This document shows positions 1,414 through 57,335 of a stretch of DNA of 64,000 bases, in pieces. The notes beneath the pieces were generated by a model. The model was not told the origin of the DNA. It saw nothing but the letters and a program-made list of their open reading frames with translations, and made no database searches. The DNA comes from Escherichia phage vB_EcoM-E33. How positions within the stretch are numbered: position 1 is the first letter of the stretch; every line of letters begins with the position of its first letter. A program made the translations under genes and the position numbers. The stretch is taken from sequence record OL780484.1, one strand, 5' to 3'.

Positions 1414-1908
1414 ATGGATATTTTTGATATGTTACGTCAAGACGAAGGTCTTGATTTAAATCTTTATAAAGACACTGAAGGTTATTGGACTATTGGCATT
1501 GGCCAATTGATTACTAAGAACCCTTCTAAAGATGTTGCTCGTGCTGAACTTGATAAGCTTATGGGTCGAGTTTGTAATGGTCGTATTACTATGGCTGAAG
1601 CTGAACAACTCTTTAACCGATCGGTTGAAAATGCTCGTAGAGCTATTCTGCGTAATCCTAAATTGAAACCTGTTTATGATGTACTGGACGAAGTTCGTCG
1701 TTGTGCTTTAATTAACATGGTCTTCCAAATGGGTGAAGCAGGCGTAGCAGGGTTCACTAACTCTTTACGTATGCTCCAACAGAAACGTTGGAACGATGCG
1801 GCAGTTAACCTGGCTCAATCCCGTTGGTATAAACAAACTCCTAATCGTGCTAAGCGCGTGATTTCAACATTTAAAACAGGTACTTGGAAAGCATATGAAA
1901 ACTTATAA
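1414..1908 (+). CDS. e: endolysin (T4 lysozyme)
   Basis: 164 aa; near-identical to remembered T4 lysozyme over its length (MxIFxMLRxDEGL...YKDTEGYxTIGIG...RTGTWxAYxNL). Confidence 0.95.
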
Positions 1909-2293
1909 TGAATTTATCGCAGAGAATGTAATTCCTGCATCTAAAGAACTTTTGGCGATGTTTGAATCTGAAGAGTTCACTGAAGAACTGAATGAGAACC
2001 TGACCCAGGCCACTCCTCAGGTTATTCGCGTTCGTAATGCCCTTCAGACAGGCATGCAGGCTCGTGTATCTAAGACTATGAAGCTGGCATTCACCACTTC
2101 TAAAAATGAAGACTATGGTGATGGTATTGCAATGAACACTGGGCAGTATTATGTTGAGTGGAATGGTGAAACCGGTACTGCTAAGATTCGCCAAACGAGA
2201 GCAGCGGGTGGCAAAATGTTGGACCTTAAACTGAACGTTAAAGAGAAAGACGTCGCGGCTTTGTTCAAGAATTGGATGAAGACTTACAAATAA
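1895..2293 (+). CDS. internal head protein (Ip) with capsid targeting sequence
   Basis: N-terminus [10 protein letters not shown] matches the T4 internal-protein capsid targeting sequence; 132 aa. Confidence 0.65.
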
Positions 2294-2343
2294 GTTTACA
2301 TCTCCTGTAGTCATGATACTATAGACCTATCAACTACAGGAGA
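2294..2343 (+). promoter_or_regulatory. early promoter (GTTTAC 2294-2299, TACTAT 2317-2322) with 10-bp inverted repeat TCTCCTGTAG/CTACAGGAGA covering the denV SD
   Basis: -35/-10 spacing 17 with TG extended -10; arms at 2301-2310 and 2334-2343. Confidence 0.6.
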
Positions 2344-2349
2344 TTAAAA

Positions 2350-2766
2350 ATGACTCGTATCAACCTTACCTTAGTATCTGAATTGGCTGACCAACACTTA
2401 ATGGCTGAATATCGTGAATTACCACGTGTTTTCGGTGCAGTTCGTAAGCATGTTGCTAATGGTAAACGTGTCCGTGATTTCAAAATCAGTCCTACTTTTA
2501 TCCTTGGCACAGGCCATGTTACATTCTTTTACGATAAGCTTGAATTTTTACGTAAGCGACAAATTGAGCTTATAGCCGAATGTTTAAAACGTGGTTTTAA
2601 TATCAAGGATACTACTGTCCAGGACATTAGTGACATTCCTCAGGAATTCCGTGGTGACTATACTCCACACGAAGCTTCTATTGCTATATCTCAGGCCCGT
2701 TTGGACGAAAAAATTGCACAACGCTCTACCTGGTACAAACATTACGGCAAGGCTATTTACGCTTAA
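2350..2766 (+). CDS. denV: endonuclease V (pyrimidine dimer DNA glycosylase)
   Basis: 138 aa; near-identical to remembered T4 endonuclease V ([28 protein letters not shown]...). Confidence 0.95.
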
Positions 2767-2808
2767 TTAAATCCGTGATAGAATACTTCTATCAACTTAA
2801 GGAATAAT

Positions 2809-3168
2809 ATGAAAACTTACCAACAATTTATTACTGAATCTACTCAGCGCATTAACGAAGCTATGTCTCCTGAACAATTGGCTAAGGCCAAAGAAGGGCT
2901 GAACCCATCTGAAGTTTTTAAAGTTACAGGTAAAGACTTTGCTTCCATGGCCACTAACCAGAGCTTGGCTAAAGAACTTAAATCTAAATCTAACTTCATT
3001 CATGCTACATGGAATGGTGATTCTCTTACTTCAATAAGTGTGTACAATAAAAAAGGTCTCCTTAAGAGTTCTTATGGCGCGGATGCCATCCGTGTTTCTA
3101 AATCAGATTGGCATAAAAACACTACTAAAGCAGAAAAACCTCATAACCCGGCACTAGACCATCTTTAA
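2809..3168 (+). CDS. internal head protein (Ip) with capsid targeting sequence
   Basis: N-terminus MKTYQQFITEST; 119 aa; first ~36 nt shared with the next gene. Confidence 0.65.
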   Translation: MKTYQQFITESTQRINEAMSPEQLAKAKEGLNPSEVFKVTGKDFASMATNQSLAKELKSKSNFIHATWNGDSLTSISVYNKKGLLKSSYGADAIRVSKSDWHKNTTKAEKPHNPALDHL

Positions 3169-3176
3169 GGCTTAAT

Positions 3177-3434
3177 ATGAAAACTTACCAAGAATTTATT
3201 ACAGAATCCACTTTAGTTTCTAAACGTTGGAATATGATTGTAAACGTTAAACCTTCCGGCACTGAAGTTTCTATGGCCGACCCTAATGATGACGAACTTG
3301 AGCACGCTTTTAGCTCTAAAGAAACTGACGAGAAAGTGGTTAAGCAACTGGTTGCTGATGCAGATCAACTTCGTAAAGTAGCAGATGTTGTTAAGCTGTT
3401 TACTAAGAAAGGTTTTAAACACGAAGAACGTTAA
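3177..3434 (+). CDS. internal head protein (Ip) with capsid targeting sequence
   Basis: N-terminus MKTYQEFITEST; 85 aa. Confidence 0.65.
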   Translation: MKTYQEFITESTLVSKRWNMIVNVKPSGTEVSMADPNDDELEHAFSSKETDEKVVKQLVADADQLRKVADVVKLFTKKGFKHEER

Positions 3435-7936: not shown

Positions 7937-8215
7937 ATGGACCTAAATTCAAAGATTTTAATTCTAGCGTTCGCTGTGGCTATTTCTTATATTGTTCTTT
8001 CGCCTATCATGGATGATGTGGCTTACAAAAGAGAGATAGAGGTTGTAGCAGCGACGTATAATGCTAATAATAAAGAGTGTCCTAATAAAAACGGGATGGA
8101 TTTAATTAAAGCGCATTATATGCTTTCCATTACCTCGCCTATACAGAGGAATTGGGTTGAATATAATTTTAACGACGTGTTCTATTCTTATTGTCGTAAG
8201 CTTAAAAAGCTATAA
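7937..8215 (+). CDS. hypothetical membrane-anchored protein
   Basis: N-terminal TM segment; 92 aa. Confidence 0.45.
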   Translation: MDLNSKILILAFAVAISYIVLSPIMDDVAYKREIEVVAATYNANNKECPNKNGMDLIKAHYMLSITSPIQRNWVEYNFNDVFYSYCRKLKKL

Positions 8216-8307
8216 ATAATAATACTAACCGTAGAGCTTTAGCTTTTGGTAATCGCTATCGGTTAAGGCCGAAAGGCAAATAGTATAAAACAACAAAGGA
8301 CTTTTGT

Positions 8308-8601
8308 ATGGATATTTTCCGTACAGCGGCTTGTATCCTTATGGCGGGATGTTTAAGCCCTACAGTTTCACTAGCAAATGGTGCCAATGATAAATTGATG
8401 GATGCATTTGCTAGTAGTGCGATGCCTGTTTATGCGCAAATGAGTAGACCCAGCGTAAAGGCCTCCGAAGACTATTGGGCCTATGTTACGGCTTCCTGGA
8501 AGATTTCAAGTTGTCGGACTATAGAAGCGTGCTCAATTGAAGGTCGGGCCATCGGAGAGCGTTATGTAAAACTAATGAAGGTGGAAGATGAAGTTCAATG
8601 A
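8308..8601 (+). CDS. secreted/lipoprotein-like 97-aa protein, possibly rI-like by position and size
   Basis: Signal peptide with LMAGC lipobox; T4 rI lies beside tk and is 97 aa; sequence itself not recognised. Confidence 0.35.
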   Translation: MDIFRTAACILMAGCLSPTVSLANGANDKLMDAFASSAMPVYAQMSRPSVKASEDYWAYVTASWKISSCRTIEACSIEGRAIGERYVKLMKVEDEVQ

Positions 8602-9492: not shown

Positions 9493-9749
9493 TGGCTGTC
9501 GGTTTTGCGAAGGATGGAGCCGAACAGCTCGAAATGGAAGCTGTTGTACAAGCCGCTATCACCCATGCGAGAGCACAAGTGGCTGTTGAACGTGAATCCT
9601 CTGAATTCTGTTTTGACTGCGACGAAAAAATTCCTGAAGCGCGGAGACAAGCGATTAAAGGTGTGATATATTGTGTTGGTTGTCAATCAATGCATGATAA
9701 AATTTTTAAACGTGAGCCACGAAATTGTTGGCACAGGAGCATGAGATGA
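9492..9749 (+). CDS. TraR/DksA-family C4 zinc-finger protein
   Basis: CFDCDEKIPEARRQAIKGVIYCVGCQ matches TraR/DksA zinc-finger signature. Confidence 0.5.
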   Translation: MAVGFAKDGAEQLEMEAVVQAAITHARAQVAVERESSEFCFDCDEKIPEARRQAIKGVIYCVGCQSMHDKIFKREPRNCWHRSMR

Positions 9750-9841
9750 TTTACTATCTTGAACCTTGGGCTTGGTTAACAATGACCGTAGGGCCTGTTT
9801 TAATTGGTTTATTCTTTTCGTGGTTGGCGAGGAAACTGTAA
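9746..9841 (+). CDS. small hydrophobic peptide (31 aa)
   Basis: ATG overlaps upstream TGA and its TAA overlaps next ATG; not in ORF track (too short). Confidence 0.3.
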   Translation: MIYYLEPWAWLTMTVGPVLIGLFFSWLARKL

Positions 9842-21286: not shown

Positions 21287-21501
21287 TGAATAAATTTCGT
21301 AATGCTGTTTCTGATATCCTGGCTAATATAACATTGGTTCTGTTTATCGTATGCCTTTTAATCCTGGCTATTCCGTTTGGATTGCTGTTCATGATTATTG
21401 GTGCTCTGAGTACTGAAAAAGGTCTTGAAGGGTCCGAGTTCGACAAACGAATCCAGGCTGTTCATAGTGTTATTGCAAAAATGATGAAGGTGAAAGAATG
21501 A
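21286..21501 (+). CDS. small membrane protein
   Basis: 71 aa, hydrophobic. Confidence 0.4.
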   Translation: MNKFRNAVSDILANITLVLFIVCLLILAIPFGLLFMIIGALSTEKGLEGSEFDKRIQAVHSVIAKMMKVKE

Positions 21502-21794
21502 AACGTTTTGAAGAATATGTAGCTTTGAATTGGACCGCTTGGGACAAGTTTGGTGATGATTGGTACTTCCATGACTGTGACCTGAACCCTGAATTCTTTA
21601 AAGGTAAGGAAGACGACCTCAAGGACATCTATGCTCTGTCAGAGATTCATGGTATTAAACCTACTGTCTATTTCTCTTTTGATGATACCGGGTTCCTTAT
21701 CCAGATTTACGTCCCATACGGAACTAATGAAGACGAAGTTCTAAAAACTTGGGACTACCAAGGAGTTATTTCCTGTGGACCAAAAGTTAACTAA
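21498..21794 (+). CDS. hypothetical protein
   Basis: 98-aa ORF. Confidence 0.45.
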   Translation: MKRFEEYVALNWTAWDKFGDDWYFHDCDLNPEFFKGKEDDLKDIYALSEIHGIKPTVYFSFDDTGFLIQIYVPYGTNEDEVLKTWDYQGVISCGPKVN

Positions 21795-25535: not shown

Positions 25536-25709
25536 ATGACGAATTCGATGGATTTTGATAAGATTAAATCTGACAAAAATGAGATGATACTTCAATTTGA
25601 AGCCGCTCGTATTAAAGCAGAAAATGAAGGTACTATTACCTATAAGCCTATCAAGTTCAGGTCTAATCACGAACCTCTGTACGGTGTATTAGTTGGTAAA
25701 GGAGCTTAG
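25536..25709 (+). CDS. small hypothetical protein (57 aa)
   Basis: AAGAGG SD then ATG 25536; stop lies inside the terminator hairpin; not in ORF track. Confidence 0.3.
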   Translation: MTNSMDFDKIKSDKNEMILQFEAARIKAENEGTITYKPIKFRSNHEPLYGVLVGKGA

Positions 25710-25720
25710 GCTCCTTTTTT
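25701..25720 (+). terminator. rho-independent terminator
   Basis: GGAGC-ttag-GCTCC followed by T6. Confidence 0.65.
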
Positions 25721-43834: not shown

Positions 43835-44038
43835 ATGCCTAAATTAGAGAAAGTAGTGTTTATTGGTTGGTTTGAAAATGGTAATATGTTTACCAAAGAA
43901 ACCGTTCTGGATGTTAGTGACCAAAATATGATTGAATGGGTTACAGTGCAGTATGCAGAAGTGAATAATGCGCTGGTGAAAGCCTTTGTTGATGACAATA
44001 AAGTTTTTGAGTGTGATTACCGTTCTAACGAAAAATAA
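43835..44038 (+). CDS. dmd: Dmd antitoxin (anti-RnlA/LsoA)
   Basis: 67 aa; KVVFxGWFxNxxMFTKE...TQYAEVNxALVKAFxDDxKV matches remembered T4 Dmd; position between 41 and 61. Confidence 0.6.
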   Translation: MPKLEKVVFIGWFENGNMFTKETVLDVSDQNMIEWVTVQYAEVNNALVKAFVDDNKVFECDYRSNEK

Positions 44039-44040
44039 CA

Positions 44041-44070
44041 GTTTACATCAAAGGGATAATGCAGTATATT
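44041..44070 (+). promoter_or_regulatory. early promoter (GTTTAC ... TATATT) with inverted repeat GGGATAAT/ATTATCCC
   Basis: -35 44041-44046, -10 44065-44070. Confidence 0.5.
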
Positions 44071-44098
44071 ATCCCTATCAACTACCGAGGAGAACATT

Positions 44099-44392
44099 AT
44101 GAAAAAGTTATTAATCGCAGCAATTCTTGCCGTAGCATCATGTGGTACAGCCCCAGTTACTGCTGGACTTGATAAAGACCTTTGTGAATGGTCTATGACT
44201 GCAGACCAAGAATCAGTCGAACATCAGATTTATGCTGATATCATGAACATCACTAAACGTGACCGCCCTGATATGGTTAAAGAAGTGTCAGACCAATTGG
44301 CTTCAAGCGGCGTTATGCAGTATAACTATGTTCTGTATTGTGACGCTAATTTCGATAACAAAAACATCGTTAAAGAGGTGACAGGTGAATAA
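44099..44392 (+). CDS. Spackle-like periplasmic protein
   Basis: 97 aa with signal peptide/lipobox VASC; size and position match T4 sp (61.3). Confidence 0.4.
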   Translation: MKKLLIAAILAVASCGTAPVTAGLDKDLCEWSMTADQESVEHQIYADIMNITKRDRPDMVKEVSDQLASSGVMQYNYVLYCDANFDNKNIVKEVTGE

Positions 44393-45048: not shown

Positions 45049-45214
45049 GATTTCTGTATTCGAGTTATTCGAAGAATATGAAATCATATCAAAAGACCAA
45101 GAAGCTATCCATATTATTGCTGATGATGGTGTGACTTGGATTATTCCACTTTACCACGAAGATACCTATGAAGTCACTGATGCAAATGGTGATAAAGCTA
45201 TTTTCGTAATATAA
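45023..45214 (+). CDS. hypothetical acidic protein
   Basis: 63 aa; start uncertain (45005 or 45023). Confidence 0.3.
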   Translation: MSAMCTGSKISVFELFEEYEIISKDQEAIHIIADDGVTWIIPLYHEDTYEVTDANGDKAIFVI

Positions 45215-45217
45215 ATA
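45210..45217 (+). promoter_or_regulatory. T4-type late promoter TATAAATA
   Basis: TATAAATA followed by GGAG SD and ATG 45231. Confidence 0.4.
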
Positions 45218-45230
45218 AGGCCAGGAGCCT

Positions 45231-45392
45231 ATGAAATCTTTTAAAGAAGTTATGAACGAAGATATGGTCGCAGGCGATGCAGGTGGTAACCCATCTAATA
45301 TTGCCTCCGGAACTACCTCAGGCGCGGTCGTCAACAAAGGGCCTGAACAAATCCCATCTAAAAAGCGTAAAGAAAAATCCGAAAACGAATGA
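45231..45392 (+). CDS. small hypothetical protein (53 aa)
   Basis: Strong SD AGGAG 4 nt upstream; late-promoter motif just upstream; not in ORF track. Confidence 0.35.
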   Translation: MKSFKEVMNEDMVAGDAGGNPSNIASGTTSGAVVNKGPEQIPSKKRKEKSENE

Positions 45393-45430
45393 TATAATGG
45401 CTCTATTAATTTAGAGCCCAAGGAAAAATA

Positions 45431-46459
45431 ATGTCATATGTCGATAGAGAATTTGCTGTACGTGCCTTGAATTACCAACCTAAATTCAGACAAGTAACCG
45501 GTAGTGATTTTAAATTAAACTGCCGTTGTCGTGTATGTGGCGACTCCCTAAAAGATGAGAACAAAGCTCGTTTTTGGGCCTATCCGGCCAATGACGGCTC
45601 CGTAATGCTGCACTGTTTTAACTGTGACTATTCAGCAGGAATTAAGAAGTATCTATACGAATATGAGCCTGATTTATATCGAGAATATATTCTTGAGAAA
45701 CATAAAGAGCAATCGTTCGGGAGACAAGCTGCACCTAAGGTGGAGATATCAGAAAAGATTAAAGCCAAGATGCCTGTCATCGAAAAGCTTAATTTCTGTG
45801 AACGTCTGGATAGAATGCCAAAGGACCATCCTATTATCAAATATGTAACACTACGTTGCATTCCTGAAAACAAATGGAATCGCTTATGGTTTACTAAAGA
45901 ATGGCCGGCATTGGTGAACTCTGTCAATCCAGGGACCTATTCTAAAGAAATGCCTGAGCCTCGTTTGGTTATTCCAATTTTCAATAAGAATAAACAAATT
46001 GAAAGTTTTCAGGGTCGAGCCTTACGTAAAGATGCTCCACAAAAATATATTACAATAAAAGCTCATGACCAAGCTACAAAAATATATGGAATGGATACAG
46101 TTGACGAACGTCAGTTGGTGTGGGTAATGGAAGGCCCTATTGACTCTTTGTTTGTTCCGAATGCAATAGCAATTACTGGCGGGTCGTTGGACTTGGCTAT
46201 GGTTCCATGTAAAGAAACTCGTGCCTGGGTAATGGACAATGAACCCCGCCATCCTGACACAATTAAGCGTATGCAACGATTAGTTGATGCTGGCGAAAGG
46301 GTTCTATTCTGGGACAAGGCTCCATGGCCTTCTAAAGATATAAATGATATGATTATGAAAGATAAAGCTGATATAAATGATGTACTGGCATATATGAAAG
46401 CTAATATAGCCCAAGGTCTAATGGCTAAAATGAGACTTTCAAAATATTCTAAAATTTAG
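45431..46459 (+). CDS. 61: DNA primase gp61
   Basis: 342 aa; zinc-ribbon CRCRVCGDS...CFNCDY and EPDLYREYI match remembered T4 primase. Confidence 0.9.
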   Translation: MSYVDREFAVRALNYQPKFRQVTGSDFKLNCRCRVCGDSLKDENKARFWAYPANDGSVMLHCFNCDYSAGIKKYLYEYEPDLYREYILEKHKEQSFGRQAAPKVEISEKIKAKMPVIEKLNFCERLDRMPKDHPIIKYVTLRCIPENKWNRLWFTKEWPALVNSVNPGTYSKEMPEPRLVIPIFNKNKQIESFQGRALRKDAPQKYITIKAHDQATKIYGMDTVDERQLVWVMEGPIDSLFVPNAIAITGGSLDLAMVPCKETRAWVMDNEPRHPDTIKRMQRLVDAGERVLFWDKAPWPSKDINDMIMKDKADINDVLAYMKANIAQGLMAKMRLSKYSKI

Positions 46460-46656
46460 GCAGGAACTCCGCTAAAGAATCCAATTATGCTTAATACGTG
46501 TTCCATTGTAACCGCTGGTAAAATTATCCCTTGGCTAGCGGCTACAGGGACTACTAGAAGATTCCAAAGGAATACGTCTAGCGCAAGAAAACCTAACATC
46601 ATTTTCTTGTCTTTCTTTTCGGCCAATTTCCAGATTTGGTAAAAAATACTGCCCAT
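46456..46656 (-). CDS. small membrane protein (minus strand)
   Basis: 66 aa; AGGAGG SD 5 nt upstream of ATG on minus strand; hydrophobic; lies in an otherwise intergenic gap. Confidence 0.5.
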   Translation of the reverse strand: MGSIFYQIWKLAEKKDKKMMLGFLALDVFLWNLLVVPVAASQGIILPAVTMEHVLSIIGFFSGVPA

Positions 46657-46677: not shown

Positions 46678-46685
46678 TATTTATA
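46678..46685 (-). promoter_or_regulatory. T4-type late promoter TATAAATA (minus strand)
   Basis: Reverse complement of TATTTATA, ~10 nt upstream of the SD of the minus-strand gene. Confidence 0.4.
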
Positions 46686-47379: not shown

Positions 47380-47901
47380 ATGGCATTTTTTAACGAATGT
47401 AGTGGTTTGATTTCTGGTGTTGATAAAGCTGAGGAAGCTTATTTTAATGCTCTGATTCATGAAGATAAAGACCCTCTGCAGGTTATGCTTGATATGCAGA
47501 AATCATTACAGGTCCGTTTGGCTACTGAAAAATCTGAATTTAACTCTAACCCCGATGAACTGGCTACTGCAGGTCAAGTTGTCGATTGGCTTCGCAACCA
47601 GAAAGATTATATTGATGACGAATTCCGTGAACTGTTGACTTCTCTTGGTGGCATGAGTAATGGTGAGAAAGCCGCATCTAGCGTCTGGAAGCCTTGGAAA
47701 GCTCAGCACGGTGAATTCCGTAACCGTCGTATTGACGAACTCTCTCCTGAAGACCAGCTTGAAATTAAATTCGAGATGATTGATATTCTGCACTTTGTTC
47801 TGAATATGTTCCAAGGTCTTGGTCTGTCAGCCGAAGAAATCTTTAAGTTGTATTACCTGAAAAACGCTGAGAACTTTGCTCGTCAAGACCGAGGTTATTA
47901 A
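47380..47901 (+). CDS. 56: dCTP pyrophosphatase gp56 (MazG-like all-alpha NTP-PPase)
   Basis: 173 aa; DDEFRELL and EMIDILHFVL resemble MazG-type motifs; T4-like position next to 61. Confidence 0.6.
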   Translation: MAFFNECSGLISGVDKAEEAYFNALIHEDKDPLQVMLDMQKSLQVRLATEKSEFNSNPDELATAGQVVDWLRNQKDYIDDEFRELLTSLGGMSNGEKAASSVWKPWKAQHGEFRNRRIDELSPEDQLEIKFEMIDILHFVLNMFQGLGLSAEEIFKLYYLKNAENFARQDRGY

Positions 47902-48041
47902 TGCCTCGTTTAAATAAACGTCAACTAAAAAAGTTGAATAAGAAAAGGGCGAAAGCCTTTACTGCCTTATTACGTAATGAAATAACTAAAGAAATAGACC
48001 AAGAGATTATTGAACAACTTTGGAAAGCCGCCAAATTGTAA
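47901..48041 (+). CDS. small basic hypothetical protein (46 aa)
   Basis: TAATG overlap with gp56 stop; not in ORF track. Confidence 0.3.
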   Translation: MPRLNKRQLKKLNKKRAKAFTALLRNEITKEIDQEIIEQLWKAAKL

Positions 48042-48043
48042 GT

Positions 48044-48051
48044 TATAAATA
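48044..48051 (+). promoter_or_regulatory. T4-type late promoter TATAAATA upstream of soc
   Basis: TATAAATA 31 nt upstream of soc ATG; soc is a late gene. Confidence 0.45.
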
Positions 48052-48082
48052 CACCTGTAATTAAACAACAAAGGAGTTAATT

Positions 48083-48316
48083 ATGGGTGGTTTCGTTAAT
48101 ATCAAAACCTTTACACATCCAGCTGGTGAAGGTAAAGAAGTTAAAGGTACTGAGGTTTCGGTTCCGTTTGAGATTTATTCAAACGAGCACCGTATTGCAG
48201 ACTCTCATTATCAGACTTTCCCTTCGGCCGTTGCAGCCTATACTACTGTAGTGACTGATGCAGCCGATTGGCGAACTAAGAACGCAGCAATGTTCACGCC
48301 GACCCCAGTAGTTTAA
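48083..48316 (+). CDS. soc: small outer capsid protein Soc
   Basis: 77 aa; VNIKTF...HYQTFPS...AAY matches remembered T4 Soc. Confidence 0.65.
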   Translation: MGGFVNIKTFTHPAGEGKEVKGTEVSVPFEIYSNEHRIADSHYQTFPSAVAAYTTVVTDAADWRTKNAAMFTPTPVV

Positions 48317-57158: not shown

Positions 57159-57335
57159 ATGCCACTTTATGATTACAAATGCCAATCTGAAGACTGTGCA
57201 AAAGAATACGAAAAAATCAAGAAAATCTCTGAAAGAGATAATGATGTTTGTCCTGATTGCCATCGGCTGGCTGTTCGGTTAGTCTCGGCTCCTAAACATG
57301 TTAATGGCGGTTTTTACGACCTGCTGACTAAGTGA
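57159..57335 (+). CDS. small zinc-ribbon protein (58 aa)
   Basis: YKCQSEDC...CPDCH zinc ribbon; not in ORF track. Confidence 0.4.
   Translation: MPLYDYKCQSEDCAKEYEKIKKISERDNDVCPDCHRLAVRLVSAPKHVNGGFYDLLTK

Follow-up and report, generated by a model that had tools for sequence, protein, structure and literature searches.

What is encoded by the short open reading frame (ORF) that lies directly upstream of the primase gene in T4-like phages, and what could so small a product do? We addressed this question for positions 45231–45392 of a 64,000-nucleotide stretch of Escherichia phage vB_EcoM-E33 (OL780484.1). The whole of this stretch is referred to as the window, and the coordinates of its features are collected in Table 1. 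This ORF is orthologous to T4 gene 61.1, which has been listed among the few conserved ORFs of the T4 family that lack a function (Nolan et al., PMC1524935). A search of the literature for functional data on its product, gp61.1, found only genome-annotation tables. Our analysis shows, at the level of sequence, that gp61.1 is homologous to residues 57–94 of the capsid protein gp23, a segment that holds the cleavage site of the gp21 protease and the N-fist. Taken with an N-terminus resembling a capsid targeting sequence (CTS) and with a late-promoter motif, this homology points to head morphogenesis, and we tentatively propose that gp61.1 is a peptide targeted to the prohead and processed there by gp21.

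The window phage is T4-like, of the genus Dhakavirus, and the region of the ORF is 96–98.5% identical to that of LHE83, MX01, WG01, QL01 and IME08. The same site is annotated '61.1' in IME08, and T4 likewise has 61.1 beside gene 61. The product matches phrog_1823 (E = 5.1e-32) over profile positions 1–53 of 54 and is about 80% identical to the T4 copy over the core. T4 gp61.1 (54 aa; phrog_1823, the long form being phrog_2086) has the same position and the same three-part layout. The window copy differs in a more diverged N-terminus (MKSFKEVMNE against MKTFKEFIKE) and in an exact upstream TATAAATA, absent in T4. Using tblastn, 61.1 is matched in 1476 phage records, with Escherichia, Klebsiella, Acinetobacter, Aeromonas and Vibrio among the hosts, and an exhaustive profile search of 1.8 billion representatives gathers its relatives in 57 clusters at 50% identity. 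Conservation of the reading frame in related phages had been suggested as a check by the initial annotation, and the frame proves strongly conserved. In a core of 27 codons, synonymous differences outnumber nonsynonymous ones by 18 to 2 (at 74% nucleotide identity), and by 14 to 4 against the T4 type. Differences at codon positions 1, 2 and 3 number 507, 319 and 1637. Gene 61.1 is under strong purifying selection.

The location of the gene is equally constant. Wherever the downstream gene could be located, 61.1 lies directly 5′ of primase gene 61; a primase-like ORF of 339–357 aa follows on the same strand, 2–47 nt 3′ of 61.1, in 37 of 42 loci. In T4 the stop codon of 61.1 is 2 nt from the start of gene 61. 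In the window a 38-nt spacer, which includes a Shine–Dalgarno sequence (SD) belonging to gene 61 itself, separates the 61.1 stop (45392) from the gene 61 start (45431).

The relationship to gp23 is recovered by several methods. BLASTP aligns gp61.1 residues 2–46 with T4 gp23 57–101 (40% identity, E = 3e-9). A profile of the 61.1 family finds the gp23 chains of the PDB (precursor 58–94 and gp23* 4–29; E = 2.5e-7 and 7e-6), and hhalign gives a probability of 96% for the pair. The exhaustive profile search recovers genuine gp23 proteins too, and some members of the 61.1 family carry the gp23-specific E↓AE(I/V)xGD or GDHG(Y), where the arrow marks the cut. The homologous block, residues 2–39 of gp61.1 and 57–94 of gp23, spans the gp21 site as well as the N-fist, and the two proteins are in register at the cleavage glutamate: gp61.1 Glu10 pairs with gp23 Glu65, the residue before the gp21 cut (LTE65↓A66). 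Two other candidates were rejected. The prohead core protein gp68 (LVE-NMIADGD... followed by a Lys/Arg tail) has an hhalign probability below 1% as a homolog of 61.1, and the top match of the exhaustive search (P0109) is an unrelated repeat protein.

PMC7136217 places the N-fist at gp23 residues 66–91. As described there and in PMC9546572 and PMC9958956, the N-fist faces inward in the prohead, probably contacts the scaffold, and moves to the outside on expansion; the last two also describe it as disordered, as touching four subunits and as helping to build the Soc site. For the corresponding segment of gp61.1, taken alone, disorder is likewise predicted. Beyond this segment the resemblance ends. 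Unlike gp23, gp61.1 is without the HK97-fold body, the I domain and the Delta-domain, and after the N-fist a Lys/Arg tail, present in essentially all members of the 61.1 family, replaces the N-arm. The search for an HK97-fold capsid body in the 53-aa protein gave no Pfam (including Gp23, PF07068) or NCBIfam match. Judged by its sequence, gp61.1 is not a capsid protein and is not to be filed as one. Databases sometimes name it 'major capsid domain-containing protein'; these proteins of 50–160 aa lack the HK97 body, which makes 'major capsid (domain-containing) protein' a misleading label for them. Through such automatic names the likeness to gp23 has so far been noticed only implicitly. In the literature searched we did not find the in-register match of cleavage site and N-fist, the CTS-like N-terminus or the conserved late promoter of 61.1.

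The residues around Glu10 form a putative gp21 site. The protease cuts after Glu, as at ITE-6 and LTE-619 of Alt (PMC5694885). All 54 of the family representatives with a recognisable core have a Glu 0–2 residues before it, and in 44 of these 54 the P3 position is L, I, V, M or F, mostly L or I. Variants with two-residue insertions re-form L-x-E. The P′ side (DMVAGD...) is the best-conserved part of 61.1.

The ten residues that end in this glutamate resemble the CTS that T4 internal proteins carry (IPs; Mullaney & Black 1996, as cited in PMC5694885 and PMC3012670). The N-terminal consensus of the 61.1 family is MKTYKEFxKE, and T4 IPII and IPIII begin MKTYQEFIAE. When N-termini were scored for resemblance to the CTS, T4 61.1 ranked above all 1001 background ORFs, and the median was 13 among the short forms of 61.1 but 0 in the background (p = 2e-10). 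The window copy falls in the top 0.7% of the background and is 5th among 882 N-termini of the window, where the CTS-like pattern is matched only by 61.1 and three internal-protein genes. T4 IPI, IPII and IPIII share with gp61.1, at the level of the family, an N-terminus of about ten residues (MKTYxEF(I/V/L)xE) ending in hydrophobic-x-Glu, a small size and a basic cluster. They differ in that the 'cargo' of gp61.1 is a mimic of a capsid protein and not an unrelated globular protein, and in that 61.1 adjoins the primase gene whereas the IP genes lie in the internal-protein cluster; packaging and cleavage of gp61.1 are putative. As a separate observation, the best CTS match in the window outside the internal proteins is a 98-aa ORF (21498–21794; phrog_2749, unknown function), which scores above 61.1; its N-terminus, MKRFEEYVAL, is without a Glu at position 10.

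Expression signals add a third line of evidence. The initial annotation had counted TATAAATA, upstream of the ORF, among its signals. The motif is no generic promoter box but the gp55-dependent late-promoter consensus of T4, recognised at −13 to −6 (PMC1524935), and not a sigma-70 box; no sigma-70-type promoter was found near 61.1 on the + strand, along which early transcription in the window runs. A late transcript from the motif at 45210–45217, which would depend on gp55, gp33 and gp45, is predicted to start near 45223, about 6 nt 3′ of the motif. Copies of TATAAATA in the window are not above chance (5 observed, 6.6 expected), so it is their placement and conservation that carry the weight. 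Four of the five stand some 20–40 nt before a start codon, namely those of lysozyme gene e (1384, start 1414), soc (48044, start 48083), 61.1 and a minus-strand ORF of 66 aa. Of the 128 + strand ORFs that reach 60 aa, e and soc alone are preceded by the motif at a distance of 42 nt or less. Across phages, 36 of 42 loci have a NNTAAATA motif 20–35 nt before the start codon of 61.1. Counted by distinct upstream contexts, this TAAATA-type motif is present in 22 of 25 for 61.1 as against 13 of 287 for other ORFs of the same loci. The loci without it are those of T4 type, where 61.1 abuts 61.2, and one other (L047). As a sequence motif, then, 61.1 has a T4-type late promoter.

In e and soc the late promoter is combined with a masked ribosome-binding site (RBS). 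Hairpins directly 3′ of TATAAATA cover the RBS of e (1375–1425; −14.1 kcal/mol, z = −2.9) and of soc (48035–48095; −12.9 kcal/mol, z = −2.8), an arrangement that, as read from the sequence, matches T4's classic scheme of restricting translation to late transcripts. Gene 61.1 shares with them TATAAATA at 20–40 nt before the start within an otherwise early region, but it does not mask its RBS: gating by a hairpin was rejected, since the fold of 45195–45245 (−5.5 kcal/mol, z = +0.28) is no better than that of shuffled sequences. With an unmasked RBS, 61.1 is probably translated both early, from read-through RNA, and late, from its own late RNA.

We propose, as a serious possibility that stops short of being the probable outcome, that gp61.1 is a prohead-targeted peptide processed by gp21. 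It would be recruited to the scaffolding core of the prohead, as are the internal proteins and the inward-facing N-terminus of gp23. During head maturation gp21 would cut it after Glu10, which would expose the N-terminal peptide DMVAGDAGGNPSNIASGTTSGAVVNK (DMVAGDSGGNPENISTGTTSGAVVNK in T4). The product of 43 residues, resembling the N-terminus of gp23*, would stay in the head or act on maturation. We infer the targeting and the cleavage, as well as what becomes of the product and what it does, from the features described above. A more specific role must be rated a long shot: the released 'free N-fist' would compete for the N-fist pockets of gp23, which are part of the Soc site, and so time or stabilise expansion, or it would serve as a capsid-mimicking decoy, delivered with the DNA, against host immune systems that recognise the major capsid protein. 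In either case gp61.1 would be a stand-alone duplicate of a capsid element.

Several observations weigh against the proposal that gp61.1 is a packaged gp21 substrate. These can be summarised as (i) the N-fist-like segment is compositionally simple (rich in Gly, Ser, Thr and Ala); (ii) the CTS resemblance of the window copy is moderate, with four of ten residues identical and four N-termini of the window ranked higher; (iii) its putative cleavage site has Met at P3 (M-N-E) in place of Leu or Ile, which is not a documented preference of gp21, and Asp at P1′, which is not documented for gp21 sites; (iv) because of the kinship among the family representatives, the motif counts are not independent events; (v) the predicted late start falls on the first base of the SD and leaves a leader of 8 nt; (vi) T4 61.1 has no late-promoter motif and its transcript is classed early; (vii) proteomics of the T4 infection did not detect gp61.1, and a mass-spectrometry study of the T4 head makes no mention of it; and (viii) the gene is located in an island of anti-toxin genes. 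With regard to the sixth point, the T4 ipII and ipIII transcripts are likewise classed 'early', so that early transcription is compatible with packaging.

The last of these points leads to the strongest alternative, which we regard as unlikely though worth keeping in view. Here gp61.1 would be an unpackaged, cytoplasmic anti-defence factor of the dmd/tifA/adfA island, for example a decoy of the gp23 N-terminus for a host sensor or toxin. The initial annotation had remarked that small phage proteins are often host-takeover or anti-defence factors. In the window, 61.1 comes directly after dmd and sp (the Dmd and Spackle products were both confirmed), and in T4 it comes directly after adfA. The dmd-sp-61 region of T4 has been called an anti-toxin–antitoxin island whose remaining genes were flagged as candidates (Srikant et al., PMC9391042), the T4 transcript is early, and major capsid proteins are known to trigger bacterial immunity (PMC9712102). 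Dmd, TifA (61.4) and AdfA (61.2) are similar to gp61.1 in neighbourhood and small size. However, they have no sequence relation to it and fall in separate PHROG families: 61.1 matches only phrog_1823 and phrog_2086, whereas Dmd belongs to phrog_2102. Neither head-related features nor a late promoter are known for those genes, and a simple early decoy would leave the conserved late promoter and the in-register hydrophobic-x-Glu unexplained. The only gp23-derived trigger of immunity that we found described is the Gol peptide, the activator of Lit, given in a review as 29 residues within the first quarter of gp23. Gol presumably lies just downstream of the N-fist, and a Gol/Lit link to 61.1 was set aside. 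On balance the sequence evidence (the late promoter, the CTS-like N-terminus and the likeness to gp23 at its cleavage site and N-fist) favours head morphogenesis over host takeover. The island itself varies: in IME08 61.4 (tifA-like) sits between dmd and sp, and in the window dmd (43835–44038) and sp (44099–44392) are only 60 nt apart (44039–44098), so that the window phage appears to be without 61.4.

A second alternative, which we rate as decidedly unlikely, accepts a role in the head without making gp61.1 a stable component of it. The peptide would regulate head maturation in trans, either as a pseudo-substrate or competitor of gp21 or as a competitor at the N-fist sites. The homology to gp23 and the cleavage motif apply here equally. 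The strong conservation of the P′ side is what would be expected if a protease or a pocket reads that side. In its favour, too, are the contacts of the N-fist to four subunits and its part in the Soc site, as described in the structural papers. The CTS-like N-terminus of the short forms argues instead for physical targeting to the core. No lineage-specific co-variation of 61.1 with the gp23 N-fist was found; T4 and IME08 have nearly identical gp23 N-fists, so this comparison carries no signal. The sections of the capsid structure papers drawn upon mention no unassigned density.

It is very improbable that the chief role of 61.1 is that of an upstream ORF bringing ribosomes to gene 61, or regulating it, with a peptide of little function. 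The constant position 2–47 nt 5′ of gene 61, and in T4 the 2 nt between stop and start, would suit such a role. Strong purifying selection on the amino acids opposes it, as does the retention of the peptide motifs across the 57 clusters, among them long forms that have a further folded domain; in the window, moreover, gene 61 has its own SD after a 38-nt spacer. That 61.1 is a functionless leftover, now decaying, of an event that duplicated part of gene 23 at its 5′ end, as the confinement of the homology to a short stretch of gp23 might suggest, can be all but dismissed: the gene is conserved in phages of Enterobacteria, Acinetobacter, Aeromonas, Vibrio and even Pelagibacter, retains its own promoter and SD, and shows a dominance of third-position changes that effectively refutes decay.

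The 61.1 family also has a second architecture. In most genera 61.1 occurs as a long form of about 155 aa (RB43, KP15, CC31, phage 133, KVP40-like phages and a Pelagibacter phage), one per genome and at the same locus. The long forms begin with a conserved helical N-domain of about 100 aa (predicted local distance difference test (pLDDT) 76–87), followed by the Glu motif, an N-fist-like core that is predicted to be disordered, and the Lys/Arg tail; E95 (ITE) and E109 (LFE) are invariant. Short forms of the T-even and Dhakavirus type have the CTS-like decapeptide in place of this N-domain, and we infer that the two may do the same job, targeting. The N-domain has no match in Pfam or NCBIfam and no fold match in the PDB. 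The idea that it is a copy of the gp23 Delta-domain was rejected, as no alignment was obtained outside gp23 54–97. In BFVD, a long-form model (m59ee3bfe34e3) aligns at 21–37% identity with N-terminal parts of viral proteins of 387–913 aa (A0A411BBR2, A0A1B1IT15, A0A7S5R3P1 and A0A6J7WVK5), and on these models the N-domain and N-fist may form a module within bigger proteins. Neither a word-indexed search nor tblastn against phage genomes found larger proteins bearing the module. Three relatives (P0124, P0145 and P0148) continue beyond the Lys/Arg tail with a further C-terminal domain of about 100 aa, which opens in a CTS-like manner (…NFKQFVEGLE…); this layout suggests a gene fusion, or tandem CTS-bearing genes.

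If the proposed mechanism is true, gp61.1 would join the CTS-bearing head proteins that gp21 processes, the group of IPI–III and Alt. As a prohead-targeted gp21 substrate it would be a near-universal addition to the head-internal proteins of T4, and the late promoter on a gene of the 'replication region' would be explained. The protein-packaging technology based on T4 would then profit from a second CTS variant of natural origin. Were gp61.1 instead a capsid mimic, head assembly and anti-defence would be linked. For a conserved T4 gene that has long been unassigned, the proposal is a specific hypothesis that can be tested cheaply.

Table 1 Features of the window, with coordinates counted from its first nucleotide
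Feature	Positions	Strand	Description
Gene 61.1 ortholog	45231-45392	+	53 aa: MKSFKEVMNEDMVAGDAGGNPSNIASGTTSGAVVNKGPEQIPSKKRKEKSENE; ATG at 45231
gp61.1 residues 1-10, MKSFKEVMNE	45231-45260	+	Propeptide resembling the CTS; ends M8-N9-E10, putative gp21 site
gp61.1 residues 11-39, N-fist homolog	45261-45347	+	DMVAGDAGGNPSNIASGTTSGAVVNKGPE; matches gp23 66-94
gp61.1 residues 40-53, tail	45348-45389	+	QIPSKKRKEKSENE; Lys/Arg cluster
TATAAATA, T4-type late promoter consensus (-13 to -6)	45210-45217	+	Exact match; overlaps stop codon of upstream 69-aa ORF
SD of 61.1, AGGAG	45223-45227	+	3-nt spacer to 61.1 ATG
Gene 61 (DNA primase)	45431-46459	+	Constant downstream neighbour of 61.1
66-aa hydrophobic ORF	46456-46656	-	Between primase gene 61 and mobE-like endonuclease; phrog_2024, E = 6e-28
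Internal-protein-type genes (comparators)	1895-2293, 2809-3168, 3177-3434	+	N-termini MKTY(Q/N)(E/Q)FI(T/A)E, one being MKTYQEFITE
denV-like ORF	2350-2766	+	Between internal-protein-type genes (1895-3434)
a-gt.2 ortholog	25536-25709	+	57 aa; Pfam DUF5486; AAGAGG SD upstream
T4 39.2 ortholog	57159-57335	+	58 aa; FmdB-type zinc ribbon; Pfam Zn_ribbon_8, E = 2e-11
46-aa basic protein	47901-48041	+	phrog_14392; TAATG overlap with gene 56 stop, translationally coupled to gene 56
31-aa hydrophobic peptide	9746-9841	+	phrog_12165; annotated hypothetical in phage CUA3

Some further signals lie close to 61.1 or share its promoter motif. The stop codon of 61.1 falls within TGATATAAT, an extended −10-like motif, and a 6-bp hairpin (GGCTCT...AGAGCC, 45400–45419) stands just 5′ of the gene 61 SD. 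Together these elements of the 45390–45429 region could form a weak promoter or an RNA element governing translation of the primase. An Rfam scan of the entire window gave no match. On the other side of gene 61, the minus-strand ORF of 66 aa has an exact TATAAATA (46678–46685, − strand) 29 nt upstream and an AGGAGG SD, and at the equivalent site a T4 record likewise shows an annotated minus-strand ORF. From these signals it looks like a late-expressed small membrane protein, oriented antisense in an early region. The fifth TATAAATA (8211–8218) overlaps the stop codon of ORF 7937–8215, and the next ORF, at 8308, begins after some 90 nt without coding sequence (8216–8307). No tRNA and no Rfam match was found in 8216–8307, and the motif may serve the genes downstream, or a small RNA, as a late promoter.

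Gene 61.1 is one of five short ORFs for which the initial annotation had claimed independent expression signals. All five are present in the sequence with the positions, lengths and SDs claimed, and they are real small genes with translation signals of their own; each matches a PHROG family beyond chance (E from 1e-11 to 5e-32). The description of them as unannotated holds only for a track cut at 60 aa, which is why they appeared so; related GenBank records annotate every one of the five at least once. Nor are they novel: three bear T4 names (61.1, a-gt.2 and 39.2) and two are hypothetical proteins in relatives. The short ORFs are genuine but already catalogued, and the finding is mostly ordinary.

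Particular features claimed for the other four could largely be verified. The stop codon of the a-gt.2 ORF (25707–25709) does sit in a terminator-like hairpin (25698–25717), which is followed by a T-run. The zinc ribbon of the 39.2 ortholog is borne out by the Pfam match and by its second cysteine pair (CPDC), whereas the first pair is CX4C and not CxxC as had been stated. The 31-aa peptide belongs, as described, to a coupled chain: its start overlaps the upstream ORF (ATGA), and its stop overlaps the gene that follows (TAATG). The 46-aa ORF is followed directly by the late promoter of soc. Its Pfam Gp23 match is noise, with E = 0.012, under the curated cut-off, and a BLASTP alignment to gp23 of 13 residues (E = 0.033). 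The ORF is annotated as hypothetical in Tequatrovirus KMB40 and in some other Tequatroviruses, and T4 has the homing endonuclease segF in its place. The surrounding segment (47880–48060), at the junction of gene 56 and soc, is mosaic, being about 96% identical to many Tequatroviruses and present in few Dhakavirus-like records, and the junction seems to be a hotspot of exchange.

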